DNA from: Escherichia coli
GTDB taxonomy: Bacteria; Pseudomonadota; Gammaproteobacteria; Enterobacterales; Enterobacteriaceae
DNA: 64,000 nucleotides
NCBI RefSeq assembly: GCF_045037415.1
Contig: NZ_CP173438.1
Reading direction: 5' to 3' (one strand)
In this document: piece after piece, positions 16,393 to 54,329 of the stretch
Layout of the letters: each line of letters begins with the position of its first letter
Position numbering within the stretch: the first letter of the stretch is position 1
The notes under the pieces: generated by a model
What the model was told of the DNA's origin: nothing
The model's database searches: none
Seen by the model: only the letters and a program-made list of their open reading frames with translations
Program-made: the position numbers and the translations under genes

Positions 16393-16468
16393 TGGTGGGT
16401 CGTGCAGGATTCGAACCTGCGACCAATTGATTAAAAGTCAACTGCTCTACCAACTGAGCTAACGACCC
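16393..16468 (-). tRNA. lysQ: tRNA-Lys(UUU)
   Basis: 76-nt exact match to recalled E. coli tRNA-Lys incl. CCA; symbol by position in operon. Confidence 0.93.
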
Positions 16469-16501
16469 CTTGCGGGATTATGCTGCTTTAATCATTCAGG
16501 A

Positions 16502-16577
16502 TGGTGGGTCGTGCAGGATTCGAACCTGCGACCAATTGATTAAAAGTCAACTGCTCTACCAACTGAGCTAACGACCC
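16502..16577 (-). tRNA. lysZ: tRNA-Lys(UUU)
   Basis: identical 76-nt tRNA-Lys copy. Confidence 0.93.
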
Positions 16578-16625
16578 ATACGGGTGTTACCTGAAAGATT
16601 TCTACTCGGAACCAATGTTTAAAAT

Positions 16626-16701
16626 TGGTGGGTCGTGCAGGATTCGAACCTGCGACCAATTGATTAAAAGTCAACTGCTCTACCAACTGAGCTAACGACC
16701 C
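16626..16701 (-). tRNA. lysY: tRNA-Lys(UUU)
   Basis: identical 76-nt tRNA-Lys copy. Confidence 0.93.
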
Positions 16702-16704
16702 GAG

Positions 16705-16780
16705 TGGTGGGTGATGACGGGATCGAACCGCCGACCCCCTCCTTGTAAGGGAGGTGCTCTCCCAGCTGAGCTAATCACCC
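16705..16780 (-). tRNA. valZ: tRNA-Val(UAC)
   Basis: 76-nt match to recalled E. coli tRNA-Val(UAC) incl. CCA; 3-nt spacer to next tRNA. Confidence 0.9.
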
Positions 16781-16831
16781 GATACTGCGCTGGATACTAC
16801 AAACTACTTCCACCGAACCCACCGTAATCAG

Positions 16832-16907
16832 TGGTGGGTCGTGCAGGATTCGAACCTGCGACCAATTGATTAAAAGTCAACTGCTCTACCAACTGAGCTA
16901 ACGACCC
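16832..16907 (-). tRNA. lysW: tRNA-Lys(UUU)
   Basis: identical 76-nt tRNA-Lys copy. Confidence 0.93.
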
Positions 16908-16909
16908 GG

Positions 16910-16985
16910 TGGTGGGTGATGACGGGATCGAACCGCCGACCCCCTCCTTGTAAGGGAGGTGCTCTCCCAGCTGAGCTAATCACCC
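16910..16985 (-). tRNA. valT: tRNA-Val(UAC)
   Basis: 76-nt tRNA-Val copy; 2-nt spacer to lysW. Confidence 0.9.
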
Positions 16986-17020
16986 GATACTACGCTGGAT
17001 ACTACAACTAACTATGTTAG

Positions 17021-17096
17021 TGGTGGGTCGTGCAGGATTCGAACCTGCGACCAATTGATTAAAAGTCAACTGCTCTACCAACTGAGCTAACGACCC
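17021..17096 (-). tRNA. lysT: tRNA-Lys(UUU)
   Basis: identical 76-nt tRNA-Lys copy; first gene of the operon. Confidence 0.93.
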
Positions 17097-17260: not shown

Positions 17261-18052
17261 TTACATCGCGTTCAGACGTTTTTGCGCCTGTTTAGCGCCA
17301 TCAGTACCAGGGTATTTACTGATAACCTGCTGGTATACGGCTTTCGCTTTTGCGGTGTCACCTTTGTCCTGCATGATGACGCCGACTTTAAACATCGCAT
17401 CTGCAGCCTTCGGTGACTTCGGATAGTTTTTCACTACCGAAGCAAAATAATACGCCGCATCATCTTTTTTACCCTTGTTGTAGTTTAACTGACCCAGCCA
17501 ATAATTGGCGTTTGGCAGGTAAGTTGAATCAGGGTAATTTTTGATGAAATTCTGAAATGCCACCATTGCGTCATCCTGGCGGGATTTATCCTGCACCAGC
17601 GCAATAGCTGCATTGTAATCCGTGTTTGCATCACCGCTTTTCACCGGCGCGCCAGCATTCGAAGTACCAGCATCAGCTGTCGGCGTCGTTGATGCCACCA
17701 CACCGCTTTGATCGCCGCTGGTTGATTGCGCCGCTGCACCACCGCTGCTGAGGCTGTCGATCTGCAACAGGATCTGCTTTTGCCGCTCCACGACCTGATT
17801 CAGTTGATACTGATTTTCCTGAATCTGACCACGCAGGGAATCAATATCGGATTGATTATCAGAGAGTTGTTGCTGGAGTTGGGTTAAAAGCTGGCTGTGA
17901 GCATTAGAAATACGCTCAAGTTGAGTGACGCGGTCTTCGACCGAGCCTGAGCCGACACTACTGATTGGTGCCTGAGCAAAAGCGGCCCAGGGGGCCGCTA
18001 TACCAACCAGTAACGACAGACTCAATAGTTGATGTCTGAAGTTACTGCTCAT
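17261..18052 (-). CDS. cpoB: cell division coordinator CpoB (TPR periplasmic protein)
   Basis: 263 aa; signal peptide, coiled-coil, C-terminal TPR; last gene of tol-pal cluster. Confidence 0.95.
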   Translation of the reverse strand: MSSNFRHQLLSLSLLVGIAAPWAAFAQAPISSVGSGSVEDRVTQLERISNAHSQLLTQLQQQLSDNQSDIDSLRGQIQENQYQLNQVVERQKQILLQIDSLSSGGAAAQSTSGDQSGVVASTTPTADAGTSNAGAPVKSGDANTDYNAAIALVQDKSRQDDAMVAFQNFIKNYPDSTYLPNANYWLGQLNYNKGKKDDAAYYFASVVKNYPKSPKAADAMFKVGVIMQDKGDTAKAKAVYQQVISKYPGTDGAKQAQKRLNAM

Positions 18053-18061
18053 GCAATTCTC

Positions 18062-18607
<546 letters not shown>

Positions 18608-41068: not shown

Positions 41069-41255
41069 CTGCATTTCTTTTGTAGGCCGGATAAGGCATT
41101 CACGCCGCATCCGGCGCTGTTTGCCTGATGCGACGCTTGCGCGTCTTATCAGGCCTACGGTTTCTGCATTTCTTTTGTAGGCCGGATAAGGCGTTCACGC
41201 CGCATCCGGCACTGGTTGCCTGATGCGACGCTTGTGCGTCTTATCAGGCCTACGG
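41069..41255. repeat. BIME: two tandem ~95-bp copies, each a REP pair
   Basis: 41069-41163 and 41164-41258 near-identical; each holds GCCGGATAAGGCGTTCACGCCGCATCCGGC and GCCTGATGCGACGCTTGCGCGTCTTATCAGGCCTACGG. Confidence 0.85.
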
Positions 41256-46477: not shown

Positions 46478-46494
46478 AAATGACACCGACAAAA

Positions 46495-46519
46495 CCCTGC
46501 GTGGACACGCAGGGTTTTT
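46495..46519. terminator. shared hairpin terminator between convergent gltA and TRAP permease gene
   Basis: CCCTGCGT-ggac-ACGCAGGG followed by TTTTT on the plus strand and a shorter T-run on the minus strand. Confidence 0.7.
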
Positions 46520-46523
46520 AATT

Positions 46524-47834
46524 CTACACCAGCAGCAAAGATATTGCCGGAATATAGGTAATGACCAACAGAAGTAAAATAAGACTGATCAGTAATGGCA
46601 CCGCTTCACGCATAAATTGCCCGACAGAAACCTGTACGGTATTACATACCAGCAGCATCACCGTTCCGACAGGTGGTGATAACGTTCCTAACGATAAGTT
46701 GAGGATCATAATGATGCCAAAATGCACCGGATCAATGCCAAAATGAGCCACCACGGGTTTAAGTAATGGGACTAATATCAGCAGAATGGCACTACCTTCA
46801 AGGAACATGCCAAGCACCAGCAGCAATAGATTGATAATCAATAAAAAGACGTATTTATTATCGGTCAGAGAAGTTACAAACTCCGCAACCGTGATACCTG
46901 CCCGCTCAAGGGAAAATATCCAGCCCAGCGCGGCACTCGCCATAATGATTAACATGACCGATGCCGTGGAACGCGCCGTCTCAGAGAGTGCTGTAAATAC
47001 ATGGCTGATTTTCAGTTCGCGATAAATTACAAAACCAATAAACATTACCAATAATACTGCTACCGCTCCGGCTTCCGTTGGCGTAAAGATATTTGCCCGA
47101 ATACCACCGATAACCGCAACAATTAAGAACAGTGCTGGCCAGGCCTGCACCAGCGCCACTGACACTTCTTTCGGTTTTGGCCAGTGTTCGCTGGAAGGTT
47201 TTAAACCGCGACGAATAGCCACCAACCATACGGTAACGATCAACATGGCGGAGCACAGCAGACCTGGCAGGATCCCGGCCATAAACATGGAGCCGATGGA
47301 GACATCCGCCACCAGTCCGTAAAGGATCAGTGCAATACCCGGTGGAATAATTGGTGTAATCAGCGAACCACTTGCCGTTATCGCCGCCGCAAAGCCACGG
47401 GAATAACCTTTCTGTTCCATTTCCGGCACCATCATGCGCGATAACATTGCGGCATCCGCCAGATTTGAGGCACTGACACCGCCCATCATGGTACTGACCA
47501 GAATATTAGCCCCACCCAGGCCACCGCGCATTCTGCCAATCAACACGTTGGCAATTTGCAAAATACGCGCGGCAATACCGGTATAGCTCATTAACGTGCC
47601 TAATAAGATAAAAAACGGAATAGCTAACAGCGAAGGGGTTTGCGTCGTGGCAATCAAACGCTGAATTGCCACCATTAACGGCACATTTGAATAGCAAAGG
47701 AAGTAGGTCAGAATGCCGCAAAACATCGCCAGCCATACCGGCATATTGATAAATAAACAGACGAACATAAGCGGAATGATCATCAGCCAGTTATCCAGCC
47801 AGCTTCCCGCCAGTAATTCACTCAATGCTGTCAT
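46524..47834 (-). CDS. TRAP transporter large permease subunit (DctM family)
   Basis: 436-aa polytopic membrane protein; 1-nt overlap with upstream DctQ-like gene. Confidence 0.85.
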   Translation of the reverse strand: MTALSELLAGSWLDNWLMIIPLMFVCLFINMPVWLAMFCGILTYFLCYSNVPLMVAIQRLIATTQTPSLLAIPFFILLGTLMSYTGIAARILQIANVLIGRMRGGLGGANILVSTMMGGVSASNLADAAMLSRMMVPEMEQKGYSRGFAAAITASGSLITPIIPPGIALILYGLVADVSIGSMFMAGILPGLLCSAMLIVTVWLVAIRRGLKPSSEHWPKPKEVSVALVQAWPALFLIVAVIGGIRANIFTPTEAGAVAVLLVMFIGFVIYRELKISHVFTALSETARSTASVMLIIMASAALGWIFSLERAGITVAEFVTSLTDNKYVFLLIINLLLLVLGMFLEGSAILLILVPLLKPVVAHFGIDPVHFGIIMILNLSLGTLSPPVGTVMLLVCNTVQVSVGQFMREAVPLLISLILLLLVITYIPAISLLLV

Positions 47835-48295
47835 TATTCACCTTCTTTGCGTGGCGTTTTCTTGATCAGTTGTAAGGCAGTAAAACAGGCGACACCGATA
47901 GCGCCAACCGTGACGGCAATATCGATCCAAAACCAGGATATTTTTAATATTTGCGTGGTTTTAAAGGCTGTCCCGGCAGCTAATTTCCATGCTGACCAGG
48001 CCATGACCACCAGCAAAATAATAGACATCAGAGAGACTAAAAACGCTAATATACGTTGCCCGCGTGAAGTAAGTGCATCGGCTAAAAATGGAATCGATAA
48101 ATGGGTATTATCTCGTTCAGCAACAACCGCACCAAACATGACTACCCAAATCATTAATAAACCGGAAACCTCTTCTGTCCACTGTAATGGCATATGAAAA
48201 CAGTAACGCATTATTACCGCAGCAATGGTCATGATTACCAATATAAAGAGCGTTAATACCGCAGCAACTTCAATCATTTTCCCTAAAAGACGCAT
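47834..48295 (-). CDS. TRAP transporter small permease subunit (DctQ family)
   Basis: about 153 aa with 4 predicted TM helices; start set at MRLLGKM (GAGG RBS) rather than ORF-track start at 48331. Confidence 0.75.
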   Translation of the reverse strand: MRLLGKMIEVAAVLTLFILVIMTIAAVIMRYCFHMPLQWTEEVSGLLMIWVVMFGAVVAERDNTHLSIPFLADALTSRGQRILAFLVSLMSIILLVVMAWSAWKLAAGTAFKTTQILKISWFWIDIAVTVGAIGVACFTALQLIKKTPRKEGE

Positions 48296-48354
48296 AAACA
48301 CCTCTGCTCTTAACGGTCGGTGCCGAAACACCGACCAGTCCTTATGCCATGAAG

Positions 48355-49323
48355 TTATTTCAGCTGTTGCTGAATAGTGTCATACAAACCAGGGGTCCAT
48401 TCCGGGAATTGTTGATAGACTTTTAAGGCTTTTTCTTTGAAAGGGGCGACGTCAGGATAGATGATTTCCACGCCCTGCTCCTGCATGGTTTTCAACATTG
48501 TCGCATCCTGCTCAGTGGTAATTTTCTGGCTATATAAACCAGCTTCATACGCTGTCTGGTGAATAATATCTAACTGCGCAGGTGTCAGGGTACTGAAAAA
48601 CGCTTCGCCACCCAACCATAATGATGTATTGGTCAGATAGTTCACCATTGACAGATATTTCGCCTGCTCATGCAGCTTTTGCCCATAGAGAACAGAAACC
48701 GGGTTTTCCACACCATCGATCATCCCCTGAGTCAGCGCCGGATAAACATCTCCCAGCGGCATTGGTGTTGGGGTTGCGCCCATCGCTTCGATAGCTTTAA
48801 TCTGCATGACGTTATTCGGCACGCGGATCTTCATCCCTTTCAAGTCTTCAGGTGTACGAATCGGTTTTTTAGCAATGATCTGCCTGGTACCGTACAGATA
48901 GTTGCTCATGACAATATGCACACCTTTTTCCCGTAGTTTCTGTTCTTTTTGTTTAAACCAGTCACTGGCATAAATCGCAAACAGTTTCTGCGGATCTTCG
49001 GTTAAATAAGGCCCAAACAATATTCCCAAGTCTGCATCGTAGTCAGTTAAAAATCCTACATCACTGATGGTGATAATATTCATCCCCATCAACGCTTGTT
49101 CAGTAATATCTTGTTTAGAACCTAACTGTGAACTTGGGTAAAGTTCGAAAACAATATCTCCATTGCTTTTTTTCTTCACAAGTTCTGCCCAGTGCTTCAC
49201 TACTGTATCCGCTGGCTCGCCGGGGTTACTTTCATAGGCGATTTTGATAGTTACCGGTGCGGCATTCAGCATCGGACTAAATAAAGCTAAAAGAAATAAA
49301 AGTGGTGTCAGTAATTTTTTCAT
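48355..49323 (-). CDS. TRAP transporter periplasmic solute-binding protein (DctP family)
   Basis: 322 aa; signal peptide MKKLLTPLLFLLALFSPMLNA; DctP-like length and organisation. Confidence 0.85.
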   Translation of the reverse strand: MKKLLTPLLFLLALFSPMLNAAPVTIKIAYESNPGEPADTVVKHWAELVKKKSNGDIVFELYPSSQLGSKQDITEQALMGMNIITISDVGFLTDYDADLGILFGPYLTEDPQKLFAIYASDWFKQKEQKLREKGVHIVMSNYLYGTRQIIAKKPIRTPEDLKGMKIRVPNNVMQIKAIEAMGATPTPMPLGDVYPALTQGMIDGVENPVSVLYGQKLHEQAKYLSMVNYLTNTSLWLGGEAFFSTLTPAQLDIIHQTAYEAGLYSQKITTEQDATMLKTMQEQGVEIIYPDVAPFKEKALKVYQQFPEWTPGLYDTIQQQLK

Positions 49324-49350
49324 TATTATTACCTGTAAGAGCTTTATCGA

Positions 49351-50547
49351 TTAACGGGGATCTGCCCGACAGACTGCACTTTTGCTGTAATCAAATGCTT
49401 TATACGTTAAAACAAACTCCTGATGTTCCAGTCGTTCTGCGGCACAATATTGACCGTTGGCGACATGTTCAATCACCTGCATAATATCGTCTGCAATATC
49501 GTCGAGCGTTGCGCCTTCGCTAATTACACGACCGGCATTAACGTCCATATCGTCAGATAAATGCTCCCACGTCTGCGGGTTATTACACACTTTAATAATA
49601 GGAGCGATCACTGAACCAATAACTGAACCGCGACCTGTGGTAAATAACACCATATGACAGCCAGAGGCGATAAGTTCCAGTGCTTCTGAGGAATCGTTAA
49701 TATTCGGATACCCAAAACGAGGTTCACCATCAGGCACCACGTCCATCAACCAAAGCCCAGGAAAGGGCGTTTGTTGCGTCGGCAAAATAACGCCAGCAAT
49801 CAGCGCATCGCCCGACTTGGTATAAGCCCCAAGGGATTTTTCTTCCTGAGTGGTTAAGCCGCCTTCAGCATTACCGTTAGAAAAACTCCCCAGCCCCATC
49901 AAACTGTAATAACGTTCGGCTTTTGTCATTGCCACTTCGATGGCATCACGTGCCTGCGAACTAGCCGCGCGCGACATCATATGCTGCTCACAACCAAGCA
50001 ACTCACCGCTTTCTTCAAAAATACAGGTAGCCCCTTTCTCCAGCAGTTGGTCAAAGGCACGTCCTACTGCCGGGTTACCCGTGATACCACTGGTGCCATC
50101 GGAGCCACCGCAGATAGTACCAACCACCAGGTCGCTCCAGTTCAGGATACAACGCGGTGTATCCGCAAGCTGTTCCAGCATTTCAGCGACCAACTGCTTA
50201 CCCAGAGTAATGGTGTTGGTCGTGCCTTTATTTTCCTGAATGACCAGCGTATGGCACGGTCGCCCACTTTCTCGTACTTCTTGCTCCAGCCGACGGCGAT
50301 CGAAATTCTCGCACCCCAGCGAAATAATCAGTACACCACCTACGTTGCTATGAGTCGCCAGATTTTTCACCAGCCGATAGCCATAATCGCTGGGATAACA
50401 ACCTGAAAAACCAAAATACTGCACGTCGTGACAAGGAAATCCTTCGGCAATCTTTTTAGCGACATGGCTGGCACACTCCACCATAAAGATTACCTGCACA
50501 GTATTACGAATACCTGGTCGACCATTTTGCCGTACATAACCTTCCAT
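49351..50547 (-). CDS. UxaA/GarD-family sugar-acid dehydratase, large catalytic subunit
   Basis: 398 aa resembling the C-terminal catalytic domain of altronate/galactarate dehydratases; start overlaps stop of upstream SAF gene. Confidence 0.75.
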   Translation of the reverse strand: MEGYVRQNGRPGIRNTVQVIFMVECASHVAKKIAEGFPCHDVQYFGFSGCYPSDYGYRLVKNLATHSNVGGVLIISLGCENFDRRRLEQEVRESGRPCHTLVIQENKGTTNTITLGKQLVAEMLEQLADTPRCILNWSDLVVGTICGGSDGTSGITGNPAVGRAFDQLLEKGATCIFEESGELLGCEQHMMSRAASSQARDAIEVAMTKAERYYSLMGLGSFSNGNAEGGLTTQEEKSLGAYTKSGDALIAGVILPTQQTPFPGLWLMDVVPDGEPRFGYPNINDSSEALELIASGCHMVLFTTGRGSVIGSVIAPIIKVCNNPQTWEHLSDDMDVNAGRVISEGATLDDIADDIMQVIEHVANGQYCAAERLEHQEFVLTYKAFDYSKSAVCRADPR

Positions 50548-50858
50548 TATGCTTTTTCCTCTGACTGATAGCCGGCATCATCATGATGAAAAATGGCGAT
50601 GGCATTGCTGGCAAGATTATGGGAATGCACATGTTCACCCATGGCAATATCGCGAGTGGCGTGTCCGATAATGGCGCCGTATTTCAGAATCGAATCACCA
50701 TTGTTCAGCGCTTCGCAGGCCAGTTTGTGCCCCAGGGTAACGGAACTACAGGCCACCATTTCCCCCTCATCCCACCAGACAATATCGCCACTGGCGATGT
50801 CATTCAGCGCGACTACACAGTTATCTTTGGCATGTAGCTTTAACGCACGTTTGCGCAT
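50547..50858 (-). CDS. UxaA-family dehydratase small subunit (SAF domain)
   Basis: about 103 aa from MRKRALKLHAKDNCVVAL with perfect GGAGG RBS; ORF-track start at 50963 judged an over-extension. Confidence 0.7.
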   Translation of the reverse strand: MRKRALKLHAKDNCVVALNDIASGDIVWWDEGEMVACSSVTLGHKLACEALNNGDSILKYGAIIGHATRDIAMGEHVHSHNLASNAIAIFHHDDAGYQSEEKA

Positions 50859-50872
50859 AATTCCTCCGTACA

Positions 50873-51628
50873 TCAGAAGCCGATCAATGCGCCGCCATCC
50901 ACCACCAGCACCTGACCACTGACAAACGCCGCTGCGTCTGAAGCCAGATAAACCGCAGCCCAACCGATATCCTCCGGCTTGCCGAATTTTTTCATCGGGG
51001 TACGACCCAGGATTTTGTTACGGCGTTCGTCATCACCTTCAATGGCCTTACGCAACATTGGTGTATCGATCCAGCCTGGCGCAATACCATTGACGCGAAT
51101 CCCATGAACGGCAAGCTCCGTGGTCATACCGCGAATCATGCCGAGATAGGCTGACTTCGCTGCGCTGTAGCCAGTAACCAGAGGCTGCCCAAGAAATGAG
51201 GTCATCGATGCAGTAAAAAGCACACAGCCTTTACCGCGTTGTTTCATATGCGGCACCAGCGCTTTGGTTAACGCAAATGCGCCGACTACGTGAACGTCGA
51301 GTACTGACTCAAAATCACTGACGCTCATCTCTTCAATCGGTTTTTTGCAGTGATTGCCTGCGTTATTGACCAGGATATCGATAGCCCCGTGTTCGCTAAT
51401 AAGCACATCAACTTTTTCCTGCGCGGCTGCGGTATCCCCGACATCCATTTGTATCCAACTGGCCTGCGACCCCAATGTTCCGGCGGTCGCTTGCGCCAGC
51501 TCGCCGTTCAGGTCAGCAATAATGACCTTCGCCCCGCTGACTATCATGCATTTCGCCATTGCCAGCCCCAGCCCACTGGCTGCACCGGTGATCAACGCGG
51601 TTTTGTTATGTAAAGAAAAAGCATTCAT
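50873..51628 (-). CDS. short-chain dehydrogenase/reductase, KduD/IdnO-like
   Basis: 251 aa; TGAASGLG cofactor motif and YSAAK catalytic motif. Confidence 0.85.
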   Translation of the reverse strand: MNAFSLHNKTALITGAASGLGLAMAKCMIVSGAKVIIADLNGELAQATAGTLGSQASWIQMDVGDTAAAQEKVDVLISEHGAIDILVNNAGNHCKKPIEEMSVSDFESVLDVHVVGAFALTKALVPHMKQRGKGCVLFTASMTSFLGQPLVTGYSAAKSAYLGMIRGMTTELAVHGIRVNGIAPGWIDTPMLRKAIEGDDERRNKILGRTPMKKFGKPEDIGWAAVYLASDAAAFVSGQVLVVDGGALIGF

Positions 51629-51639
51629 GGTGTCGCTCC

Positions 51640-52653
51640 TTAAAGGTCAATGAGGATTTTGGTATACGCGCCGGGATCACTTGCCCAGTCGCTAAAAGCG
51701 TGATCAGCCTGTTCCAGCGGGTAGTGAGCACTCACCAGATTGCTGACCGGATAACGCCCGGACTCCATCAATGCCAGCACGGCACGAAAATCCGCCACGG
51801 TGGCATTGCGCGAACCACGGATATCCAGTTCTTTCATCAGGAACTGCGCACTCTGATAACTCACTGGCTGTTTGGCGTAACCGACATAAACCACACGACC
51901 GCTAAACGCCACCAACCCTGTAGCCTGTTCAATGGTTTGTTGATTACCCACCGCTTCAATCACCACTTCCGGGCCGCGACCGTCATTTAACAGCACCAGT
52001 TCTGCCGCCACGTCACATTGCTGCGAATTAAGAAAACGTTGCGCACCGCATTCCAGGGCAATGTTCCGCTTGCGATCATCAATATCGATAGCAATTACGC
52101 GCGCCCCCATGGCGGATGCCGCGGCGATAGCGCCAAGGCCAATTACCCCACAACCGATAACTGCGACCCATTCACCCACATTAATTTGCGCACGTCTGGC
52201 CGCATGTAGTCCCACGGCCAGCGGTTCTACCAGCGCTAACTCATCAACACTTAAGGCATTACAGACAATGACTTTATGTGCAGGCATCGTCAGTTGTTGC
52301 GCCATCCCCCCCTGACGTTGCACACCAAGAGTTTGGTTGTTTTTACAGGCGTTAGGACGACCGCTCAGACAGGAGCTGCACACGCCACACTCAGTGCAAG
52401 GCAGAACGACCACCCGGTCACCTGGCTTGATCGCCCCTGCCATATCGCCAGTTGCCAGCACCGTGCCGCCAATTTCATGCCCCGGAATACAGGGATAATT
52501 AACCAGCGGATTTAGTCCCCGCCAGGTATTGAGGTCAGAACCACACAGTCCGACACGCTCAACATTGATTAGCACTTCTCCTTTACCGCAGACAGGTTCG
52601 GGGATATCAACAAATCGCGCCTGACTTCCCTGCTCAATGGTTAATGCCTTCAT
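51640..52653 (-). CDS. Zn-dependent medium-chain polyol/sugar-acid dehydrogenase
   Basis: 337 aa; GHE catalytic-Zn motif, structural-Zn Cys cluster, GxGxxG Rossmann motif. Confidence 0.85.
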   Translation of the reverse strand: MKALTIEQGSQARFVDIPEPVCGKGEVLINVERVGLCGSDLNTWRGLNPLVNYPCIPGHEIGGTVLATGDMAGAIKPGDRVVVLPCTECGVCSSCLSGRPNACKNNQTLGVQRQGGMAQQLTMPAHKVIVCNALSVDELALVEPLAVGLHAARRAQINVGEWVAVIGCGVIGLGAIAAASAMGARVIAIDIDDRKRNIALECGAQRFLNSQQCDVAAELVLLNDGRGPEVVIEAVGNQQTIEQATGLVAFSGRVVYVGYAKQPVSYQSAQFLMKELDIRGSRNATVADFRAVLALMESGRYPVSNLVSAHYPLEQADHAFSDWASDPGAYTKILIDL

Positions 52654-52665
52654 TCATTGCTCTCC

Positions 52666-53352
52666 TTACATTACGCCGAAGGTTTCAAAGGCCTGTACCG
52701 TGCTCATGCCATCACTGATGGCTTTGCGCACTTCACTTTCAGTTGCCACTTTTTCCAGGGCCTGGGTAATAACTTCTTTCTCAACAACCTGGGGAATAAT
52801 CAGTAATCCGTCACGATCACCAAACACGATATCGCCCGGATTCACTCGCACGCCGTGAAATTCAATAGGTACGCCGAAGTCGATGACCTTGCCGCGCGGA
52901 CCTTGATCCTGTGCGTAAGTGCCATGACAAAAAGTGGGAAATTTCAATTCAAGAATTTCAGCAGAGTCACGGGCGTAACCATCGAGTACCGCACCTGCTG
53001 CTTTCAGATGCATGGCACGGGTAGACATCAACCCGCCCCACAAGGCATAGCGCAGAGAGCTGCCCGTAGTGATGTAAACATCGTTCTCTTTGAGGGCATC
53101 CAGCGCTTCAAACATGATGCCAAACGGTTTTTCGCCAATCGCCGTCTTACCCGACGTCGATTTGGTTTCGTAAACGTCCGACTCCAGCACCGGCATTGCC
53201 CGGCCTGCCACCACCGTATTCACATCCAGCGGCTTGATTGCCGGAGAAACAAACTGGTGCATATAGCCCAGCGTGTCGAGAATATCGCCAACCACGGCGG
53301 TAAATAGCCGGGTTTTCATCAAAGCAAAAAGTTCGTTATCACTCTTCCACAT
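52666..53352 (-). CDS. RraA-family protein, putative class II 4-hydroxy-2-oxoacid aldolase
   Basis: about 228 aa from MWKSDNEL (ATG with AGGA RBS); RraA-like fold inferred by recall; first gene of the operon. Confidence 0.6.
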   Translation of the reverse strand: MWKSDNELFALMKTRLFTAVVGDILDTLGYMHQFVSPAIKPLDVNTVVAGRAMPVLESDVYETKSTSGKTAIGEKPFGIMFEALDALKENDVYITTGSSLRYALWGGLMSTRAMHLKAAGAVLDGYARDSAEILELKFPTFCHGTYAQDQGPRGKVIDFGVPIEFHGVRVNPGDIVFGDRDGLLIIPQVVEKEVITQALEKVATESEVRKAISDGMSTVQAFETFGVM

Positions 53353-53361
53353 TATTTTCGT

Positions 53362-53390
53362 CCTGTAAGCCTGTTTAACAGGTTTACAGG
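53362..53390. promoter_or_regulatory. nested inverted-repeat candidate operator
   Basis: CCTGTAAGCCTGTTTAACAGGTTTACAGG: two CCTGT arms then two ACAGG arms; inner tGTttaACa fits GntR-type GT-Nx-AC; 10-38 bp upstream of the first operon gene. Confidence 0.5.
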
Positions 53391-53615
53391 GTAAGGAGAA
53401 AAAGCGCACAATACTGCGAAGGGCGTCACGAAAAAGTTGTGTATTTACTATTTCTTCGCCACTCTTTCACACAATATGTCTTTGATTCGCACTGCATGGC
53501 GGGCGCACAGGCGCAGTAGTCTATTGATAATCAAGGGTTCTGGAGGAAAATATGAAGGATACAGTCCCGGTATTCTGGATTTCACCGACCAGGAAAAAGT
53601 ACAACAGGAGTAAAA

Positions 53616-54329
53616 ATGAGTGAGAGTGCGTTATTGACCAGCGTAACGTTATCGTCACAGGTCAAAAATCATATTCTTAATCTGATCGCCGAACAAAAAT
53701 TGACACCGGGGATGCCAGTTCCCAGTGAAGTTCAGCTGATTCAGAAATTGGGTGTCAGTCGGGGTATTGTGCGTGAGGCCTATCGTTCACTTGCCGCCCT
53801 GGGGATTCTGGAAACGCACAGCGGTAAAGTGCCACGAATCAAAAAATTTGATGATGAAGTGCTGCGCGTGGTGTTTGGATTTGCCCTGGCGACCGAACAA
53901 GTGACAACAGAGCAAATTCTTCAAGTACGCCGCTGGCTGGAGTTGGGCGTTGTGGAAGCTGCTGCCCGTAATGGCGAAGAGGAAGATTTTGCTAACCTAC
54001 GGGCTGAAATGGCAAAAATCCGCGAACAGTTCAATGATGTTGAAAGCTTTATCACCCATGATATCCGCTTCCATCAGTTACTTGCCGTTGCCTCAAAAAA
54101 TCCGCTTTTTATGATGTTATTGCAGGCATTACATCAGCAGTTGCGGCAATCCATCCAGGAGGGTTTAAACGCCCAAAGCGATCAGAAAGAGTATGGCAAT
54201 CACATCATCACACTACACCAGAAAATCTGCGATGCTGTGTGTGCCAGGGATGTCGAAACGGCGACTCAAGCCATGAAATCACACTTCGACAGCCCGGTCA
54301 GTGCACTGATCAATAATTCCTCGTCATAA
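53616..54329 (+). CDS. GntR-family (FadR/FCD subfamily) transcriptional regulator
   Basis: 237 aa; N-terminal HTH (KLGVSRGIVREAYRSL), C-terminal all-helical FCD-like domain; divergent from the catabolic operon. Confidence 0.85.
   Translation: MSESALLTSVTLSSQVKNHILNLIAEQKLTPGMPVPSEVQLIQKLGVSRGIVREAYRSLAALGILETHSGKVPRIKKFDDEVLRVVFGFALATEQVTTEQILQVRRWLELGVVEAAARNGEEEDFANLRAEMAKIREQFNDVESFITHDIRFHQLLAVASKNPLFMMLLQALHQQLRQSIQEGLNAQSDQKEYGNHIITLHQKICDAVCARDVETATQAMKSHFDSPVSALINNSSS

Follow-up and report, generated by a model that had tools for sequence, protein, structure and literature searches.

A hairpin in the dctP-dctQ spacer of an Escherichia coli TRAP transporter operon, a candidate 3' decay barrier with counterparts at homologous junctions

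The spacer between the TRAP transporter genes dctP and dctQ in a 64,000-nt stretch of Escherichia coli DNA (contig NZ_CP173438.1 of assembly GCF_045037415.1; hereafter the window) holds an RNA hairpin that is real and non-random, and maintenance of a hairpin at this junction by selection is strongly supported by comparison of many homologs. It probably sets the ratio of dctP to dctQM mRNA if a decay barrier and weak attenuation, which are not mutually exclusive, are taken together. The form somewhat favoured here is a 3' decay barrier of the malE-malF type, which would raise dctP mRNA relative to dctQM. The hairpin is an uncharacterised instance of a well-known operon-internal element, and the principle is already known. 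The design of a hairpin after the binding-protein gene, best known in ABC importers, appears to be selected in a widespread TRAP subfamily as well, with some 20 independent sequence solutions in three proteobacterial classes (Gamma-, Alpha- and Betaproteobacteria). It suggests post-transcriptional control of the proportion between binding protein and membrane subunits in these secondary transporters too. Searches of the literature returned no paper on this island or on the dctP-dctQ hairpin.

The island, its operon and the dctP-dctQ spacer

The operon lies on the minus strand and forms an accessory sugar-acid island between abrB, a FadR/GntR-family regulator gene and gltA. Its order is RraA-family gene, Zn-alcohol dehydrogenase, SDR oxidoreductase, a split UxaA-family dehydratase (N and C parts), dctP, dctQ and dctM, so that dctP is the sixth of eight genes. 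Among 5,426 complete E. coli genomes, 660-664 (about 12%) carry the island; a 2.9-kb query over the locus matched 664 of them, with 100% identity to many ST131/B2-type chromosomes. Taken whole (46524-54329), the island adds the GntR-family regulator gene to these operon genes, in which the RraA-family member is aldolase-like and the UxaA-family dehydratase is encoded by two genes, and it looks like a set encoding an uncharacterised pathway of sugar-acid uptake and catabolism. For two of the catabolic genes the mechanical open reading frames begin upstream of the PGAP starts: that of the UxaA N-part (50547-50963) runs from TTG 50963 and overlaps the SDR gene (PGAP start 50858), and that of the RraA-like gene (52666-53409) runs from GTG 53409 (PGAP start 53352).

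The operon is tightly packed, with the 59-nt dctP-dctQ spacer as its sole long gap. The remaining junctions are 11-27 nt or overlapping, and the dctM start overlaps the dctQ stop (ATGA). The hairpin accounts for this one long spacer. The true end of the operon, 1.8 kb downstream of the hairpin, is marked by the dctM/gltA terminator, made up of an A-tract, a 9-bp GC stem and a U-tract. The consensus terminator scan missed it.

Features of the dctP-dctQ junction and the downstream end of the operon (window coordinates)
Feature	Coordinates	Strand	Basis or remark
dctP, TRAP substrate-binding protein, 322 aa	49323..48355	minus	NCBIfam TRAP_S1, E = 1.8e-51; PGAP 'C4-dicarboxylate TRAP transporter substrate-binding protein'
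dctP-dctQ intercistronic spacer, 59 nt	48354..48296	minus	sequence and PGAP gene calls
RNA hairpin UGGUCGGUGU-UUCG-GCACCGACCG, 10 bp	48337..48314	minus	folding
dctQ Shine-Dalgarno AGAGG	48305..48301	minus	sequence; 5 nt upstream of ATG
dctQ, TRAP small permease, 153 aa	48295..47834	minus	PGAP and homology
dctM, TRAP large permease, 436 aa	47834..46524	minus	TIGR00786, E = 8.8e-117; PGAP
Bidirectional intrinsic terminator AAAAACCCUGCGUG-UC-CACGCAGGGUUUUGU	46493..46516	both	between convergent dctM and gltA

Read on the sense strand from the end of the dctP stop codon (TAA, 48357..48355), the spacer is CUUCAUGGCAUAAGGACU-GGUCGGUG-UUUCGG-CACCGACC-GUUAAGAGCAGAGGUGUUU, followed by the dctQ AUG. The first-pass annotation had described a perfect 8-bp stem with a 6-nt loop at 48315-48336, placed between the dctP stop and the dctQ ribosome-binding site. 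The arms lie precisely as claimed, at 48336..48329 and 48322..48315, and the spacer sequence bears out the placement. As folded, the stem consists of 8 Watson-Crick and 2 G.U pairs, with one U.G pair at each end, and closes on a UUCG loop (48327..48324). It begins 17-18 nt past the dctP stop and ends 18-19 nt ahead of the dctQ ATG. The calculation of folding energy proposed with that annotation gave -16.7 kcal/mol for the hairpin (z = -4.37), and none of 200 shuffled sequences was as stable. For the full spacer the sense strand gives -21.0 kcal/mol (z = -2.6) and the antisense strand -15.3 kcal/mol; a 76-nt context gives -27.6 kcal/mol (z = -3.3). A perfect 8-bp hairpin is rare in the shuffled spacer (P = 0.0022). 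In the whole window there are 20 matches to such hairpins (about 15 distinct loci) against 5.7 in shuffles. The structure is nevertheless modest, at 10 bp, when set against REP pairs and the 13-18 bp stems of alphaproteobacterial homologs.

A scan of the dctP-dctQ spacer found no promoter-like site. Rfam gave no match at the hairpin locus at gathering thresholds, and a permissive search gave just two matches there, on the opposite strand and at chance level, with 14.8 and 14.6 bits where the gathering thresholds are 75 and 72.6. A dispersed repeat of the REP/BIME kind was rejected on three observations, namely one copy per genome in 660 genomes, a pattern unique in the window and the lack of an Rfam REP match at this site. 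Elsewhere in the window Rfam matches include seven tandem tRNA genes (16396-17096), the CpoB/ybgF RNA thermometer (18023-18161; 153.7 bits) and two adjacent naRNA4 (REP-derived) elements at 41085-41250.

The start of dctQ can be settled at ATG 48295 for purposes of annotation. The mechanical open reading frame was said to begin within the hairpin, and its GTG at 48331 does sit within the 5' arm. The later ATG, preferred already in the first reading of the sequence, is the start on which the PGAP call, homology and the Shine-Dalgarno sequence agree. From this codon PGAP calls a DctQ of 153 aa. The N-terminus MRL.GK is invariant in a 54%-identical paralog, and most tblastn alignments against homologs (57) begin at DctQ residue 1. 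An extension upstream to GTG 48331 would have to cross spacers that vary in length and sequence among homologs. The Shine-Dalgarno sequence lies outside the main stem, with a mean unpaired probability of about 0.64 in context (partition function).

Hairpins at homologous junctions

Within E. coli the spacer occurs exactly once per genome in 660 genomes, even at an E-value of 10, and 659 of the 660 copies are at least 99% identical. The island is near-clonal in the species, so the invariance of the spacer there says little. The lone variant, in strain GN03204 (L004), has a U-to-A change 2-3 nt after the stem, equivalent to window position 48312, by which GUUAAG becomes GUAAAG and one of the two U after the hairpin is lost. 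The comparison was widened to E. albertii and E. whittamii together with a divergent lineage of E. coli itself, where the stem shows a single change, a C-to-U that turns a G-C into a G.U pair; the loop varies from UUCG to UACG, both of the UNCG type, and several flank positions vary. Substitutions are fewer in the stem (1 of about 20 positions against about 7 of 39 outside it), which is the expected direction and not significant with so few sequences.

A paralogous dctPQM operon, adjoining lgoD, a GntR regulator and tsr, is found in about 800 E. coli genomes (L002 5174-7950; L003). Identity to the window proteins is 73% for its DctP and 54% for its DctQ. The P-Q spacer of the paralog is 63 nt long and holds a different hairpin of 9 bp, GUCCUGCCU-N10-AGGCAGGAC, which stands 15 nt past the stop and 20 nt ahead of the start and thus in the same relative position. 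Both TRAP systems occur together in at least 58 genomes.

The survey of other bacteria took one genome per species and gave 57 loci with DctP relatives of 63-98% identity, from Escherichia, Citrobacter, Edaphovirga, Affinibrenneria, Lampropedia and many Alphaproteobacteria, among them Brucella/Ochrobactrum, Azospirillum, Paracoccus, Cohaesibacter and Pannonibacter. The P-Q junctions mapped also number 57, being those of 54 survey loci, the window, its annotated E. coli copy and the paralog. From dctP to dctQ the distance is 48-175 nt. A hairpin of -10 kcal/mol or better is present in 52 of the 57 spacers (median -22), and z is below -2 against dinucleotide shuffles in 45, counts to be read with an effective sample of about 20 lineages in mind since many of the loci are closely related. 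Pieces of the same length from the dctP coding sequence next door almost never fold as strongly. The only surveyed junction clearly without a hairpin is that of Affinibrenneria (L011). Perfect-stem hairpins of -10 kcal/mol or better are found in 25 of 32 P-Q gaps against 18 of 37 other same-strand gaps of the same loci (Mann-Whitney p = 0.005), the control gaps including real terminators.

The hairpins themselves are of about 21 mutually unrelated sequences. The window spacer could not be aligned with those of the paralog, Citrobacter and Edaphovirga for an analysis of covariation, and the same held between other groups. Within Brucella/Ochrobactrum an alignment of 17 sequences was possible; in its 14-bp helix 94.5% of cells are paired, as compared with 21-58% in slid controls, with compensatory double changes at 4 pairs and many G.U intermediates. 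Selection on the junction hairpin is strongly supported because hairpins recur at this place with their sequences turned over and with covariation. Sense and antisense folding do not differ significantly across distinct clades (13 of 22, p = 0.55); strand-specific selection is therefore shown only locally, by the energies in the window and by the G.U pairs in Escherichia and Brucella.

The position of the homologous hairpins is better kept on one side than on the other. Their start falls 0-115 nt after the stop (median 15-18), whereas the interval from their 3' end to the dctQ start is narrower (median 21 nt, IQR 18-26). In long spacers the best perfect stem is nearest to dctQ, and not to dctP, in three of four cases. 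Some alpha- and betaproteobacterial homologs (L028, L034, L035, L012) have spacers of 98-175 nt with several stacked hairpins. Among distinct hairpins U makes up 24% of the tail after the stem against 19% of background, and U-rich tails are found in a few homologs, among them some Paracoccus, Pannonibacter, Oceanicella and Thermus. In most homologs the Shine-Dalgarno region is left unsequestered (median unpaired probability about 0.45-0.5). In a small plasmid sample of more distant TRAP operons (DctP 24-34% identical), strong hairpins are present in 6 of 9 P-to-Q(M) junctions, with spacers of 41-181 nt; the other three junctions are of 18 nt or less or overlapping, and have no hairpin. A P-Q hairpin is thus common in TRAP operons and not universal.

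Candidate roles of the hairpin

By analogy with studied operons we infer exonuclease blocking, a differential half-life and an excess of binding protein. The hairpin would act in cis on a polycistronic mRNA reaching from the RraA-like gene through dctP to dctQ and dctM. An endonucleolytic cut or 3'-to-5' decay would start in the poorly protected dctQM region or in the AU-rich 18-19 nt before dctQ, and the GC-rich stem would stall PNPase and RNase II. The segment ending in dctP would then outlive the dctQM segment, and the periplasmic binding protein would be produced in excess of the membrane subunits. A stem that begins 17-18 nt past a stop codon is probably clear of the mRNA covered by a terminating ribosome. 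This placement, together with the lack of a U-tract, fits a 3' exonuclease barrier. As in a stabiliser of the malE-malF type, the stem-loop is on the sense strand directly 3' of the binding-protein gene and among co-directional genes, and a structure is kept at the homologous junctions (52 of 57). It is always the gene of the substrate-binding subunit that is stabilised in ABC operons of E. coli, malE being protected by an intergenic 3' structure (PMC5927463). Against a barrier, dctP is the sixth gene, so the five catabolic genes before it would be stabilised also. The distance from hairpin to dctQ start (IQR 18-26 nt) is tighter than a pure exonuclease barrier needs, and 3 of the 9 distant TRAP operons as well as Affinibrenneria manage without a hairpin.

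The first-pass annotation had seen in the hairpin a functional element of the junction that might stabilise the upstream mRNA or attenuate read-through. As a selected feature it is strongly supported by recurrence and covariation. Attenuation of read-through is disfavoured for the window copy, the tail GUUAAGAG having 2 U in 8 nt and the hairpin being unflagged by a terminator scan that calls for at least 5 U in the 8 nt directly after the stem. A partial intrinsic terminator, at which some RNA polymerases would stop so that less dctQM is transcribed and the terminated transcript keeps the hairpin as a protective 3' end, is the main rival to the barrier and an unlikely account of the junction, with evidence on both sides. 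The stem is of the terminator kind (GC-rich, at least 5 bp, loop of 3-8 nt), two U directly follow the extended stem in the window copy (CCG-UUAAG), and U-rich tails occur in homologs (CUUUCUUC in L017 and L023, CUUCUUCU in L048, UUUUCCUU in L061 and CCUUUUUG in Thermus). Clostridial stem-loops after ABC binding-protein genes are leaky terminators even with fewer than 5 U; in the reporter of the same study, however, a stem-loop without a U-rich tail gave solely read-through transcript (PMC9045158). Tails of the distinct homologous hairpins are barely enriched in U (0.24 against 0.19), and the operon's own terminator after dctM carries a U-tract, GGGUUUUGU, the working form in this genome. The window copy was rejected as a canonical intrinsic terminator for want of the U-tract. 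For the E. coli copy, stabilisation rather than attenuation is the most plausible reading by analogy. A role at the level of translation, in which the hairpin and an outer helix set the initiation of dctQ, is distinctly improbable, and so, taken jointly, are its variants: insulation from ribosomes finishing dctP, a transient pairing of the Shine-Dalgarno sequence that ties dctQ translation to that of dctP, or a structured 5' end for a processed dctQM mRNA. The minimum-free-energy fold of the spacer does pair CUUC (48354..48351, just past the dctP stop) with GAGG (48304..48301) around the main hairpin. This outer helix is weak, however, at 4 bp; E. albertii and E. whittamii lack it in their minimum-free-energy folds, and it is not general in homologs, whose Shine-Dalgarno sequences, like the one here, are mostly unsequestered. 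In favour of translation, unrelated hairpins keep their distance to dctQ while their distance from the stop ranges over 0-115 nt, and the best hairpin adjoins dctQ in three of four long spacers. The constraint may merely reflect a minimal spacer length, but it is unexplained, and this keeps the translational account alive.

At the level of DNA the perfect 8+8 palindrome could be an internal operator, bound by the FadR/GntR-family regulator either as a roadblock or in a loop with the promoter. A 10-mer of the 5' arm, CTGGTCGGTG (48338..48329), recurs on the minus strand at 53592..53583, within the divergent promoter region that separates the regulator gene from the first operon gene. This promoter copy is not within an inverted repeat, however, and the recurrence of a 9-10-mer is ordinary in loci of 7-9 kb, where control segments have a mean longest match of about 9.6 nt. 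The homologous hairpins show no sequence relationship, and their arms are not repeated elsewhere in the same locus. The stem varies by way of G.U pairs, which would be mismatched in DNA or on the opposite strand, and the short loop and GC-rich stem suit an RNA hairpin. The operator was judged unlikely, indeed the least probable of the readings weighed here, on a site 5.2 kb inside the operon, a promoter 10-mer that is not palindromic and the lack of sequence conservation among homologs. Recurrence of a 12-13-mer in the Brucella clade, taken up as a possible sign of an operator, proved to be a single arm inside coding sequence, and variation of the promoter region within E. coli is too clonal to inform. 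A palindrome with no function, arising by chance or carried along by hitch-hiking, is very unlikely. It would agree with the uninformative invariance of the near-clonal island, and the excess of non-stem substitutions in Escherichia is not significant alone. Against it stand the chance of such a stem (0.002) and the independent rise, with covariation, of about 20 unrelated hairpin forms at the same junction.

The promoter region holds an inverted repeat of its own at 53362-53390, CCTGTAAGCCTGTT / AACAGGTTTACAGG, with arms of 14 nt that are 93% complementary and 1 nt apart. It sits 10-38 nt upstream of the PGAP start of the RraA-like gene (53352), and might serve the divergent FadR/GntR regulator as an operator or, in the 5'-UTR, form a hairpin that covers the ribosome-binding site.

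A bolder form of the decay-barrier reading, put forward with low probability, would make the hairpin a position-specific 'junction module' of the TRAP subfamily, its 3' end about 16-28 nt before dctQ in some 20 unrelated forms, and its place near dctQ kept even where the spacer is 100-150 nt long. If so, one cut in the unpaired nucleotides between the stem and the dctQ start would both cap the dctP mRNA with a protective hairpin and destroy the dctQ ribosome-binding site; alternatively, the hairpin would define the 5' edge of a ribosome standby site for dctQ. Either way a single element would fix stability and the stoichiometry of translation. For those expressing this TRAP system, or studying the ExPEC/ST131-associated island, the practical point is to keep the spacer or to change it deliberately.

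Comparison with known systems

An intergenic dyad in the dctPQM operon of R. capsulatus is reportedly mentioned by Forward and co-workers in a paper of 1997. Within the window the nearest structure for comparison is the dctM/gltA terminator, which likewise stands at a gene's end with a GC-rich stem and a short loop. It differs in its flanks: the terminator has the tail GGGUUUUGU and an upstream A-tract, whereas the intercistronic hairpin runs on into GUUAAGAG and then the dctQ ribosome-binding site.

The ABC transporter clusters of cellulolytic Clostridia carry stem-loops in the same position and with the same logic, at a stability of -10 kcal/mol or better in 87% of the clusters in which the binding-protein gene comes first (PMC9045158). 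These stem-loops are GC-rich and unconserved in sequence, and both attenuate transcription and stabilise the upstream transcript (PMC9045158). They have U-rich tails, the length of the poly(U) setting the efficiency of termination, in contrast to the 2 U in 8 nt of the window hairpin. The setting also differs, being Firmicutes RNA polymerase and an ABC transporter there, and E. coli polymerase and a TRAP transporter here.

In differentially decaying operons of E. coli, conserved hairpins block 3'-to-5' exonucleases and give a non-uniform stoichiometry of mRNA (Dar and Sorek 2018, PMC5927463). Most of these structures are found within the coding sequence of the gene downstream, at a mean depth of about 107 nt, whereas the window hairpin is purely intergenic. 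The decay maps were made from K-12 strains, from which the island is absent (PMC5927463).

The stem-loops of malE-malF are a 3' protective structure in an operon of differential decay (PMC5927463). Several differences from the window hairpin are plain. The malE-malF element is a REP pair from a dispersed family, and the window hairpin is a unique sequence with a single copy per genome; malEFG encodes an ABC system, and the transporter here is of the TRAP (secondary) class. In its operon dctP comes sixth and not first. The likeness is one of arrangement. In E. coli malEFG, too, a stable stem-loop follows the gene of a periplasmic binding protein and precedes those of the membrane subunits on the same transcript, likewise without a U-tract, and the outcome to be expected in both is an excess of binding protein.
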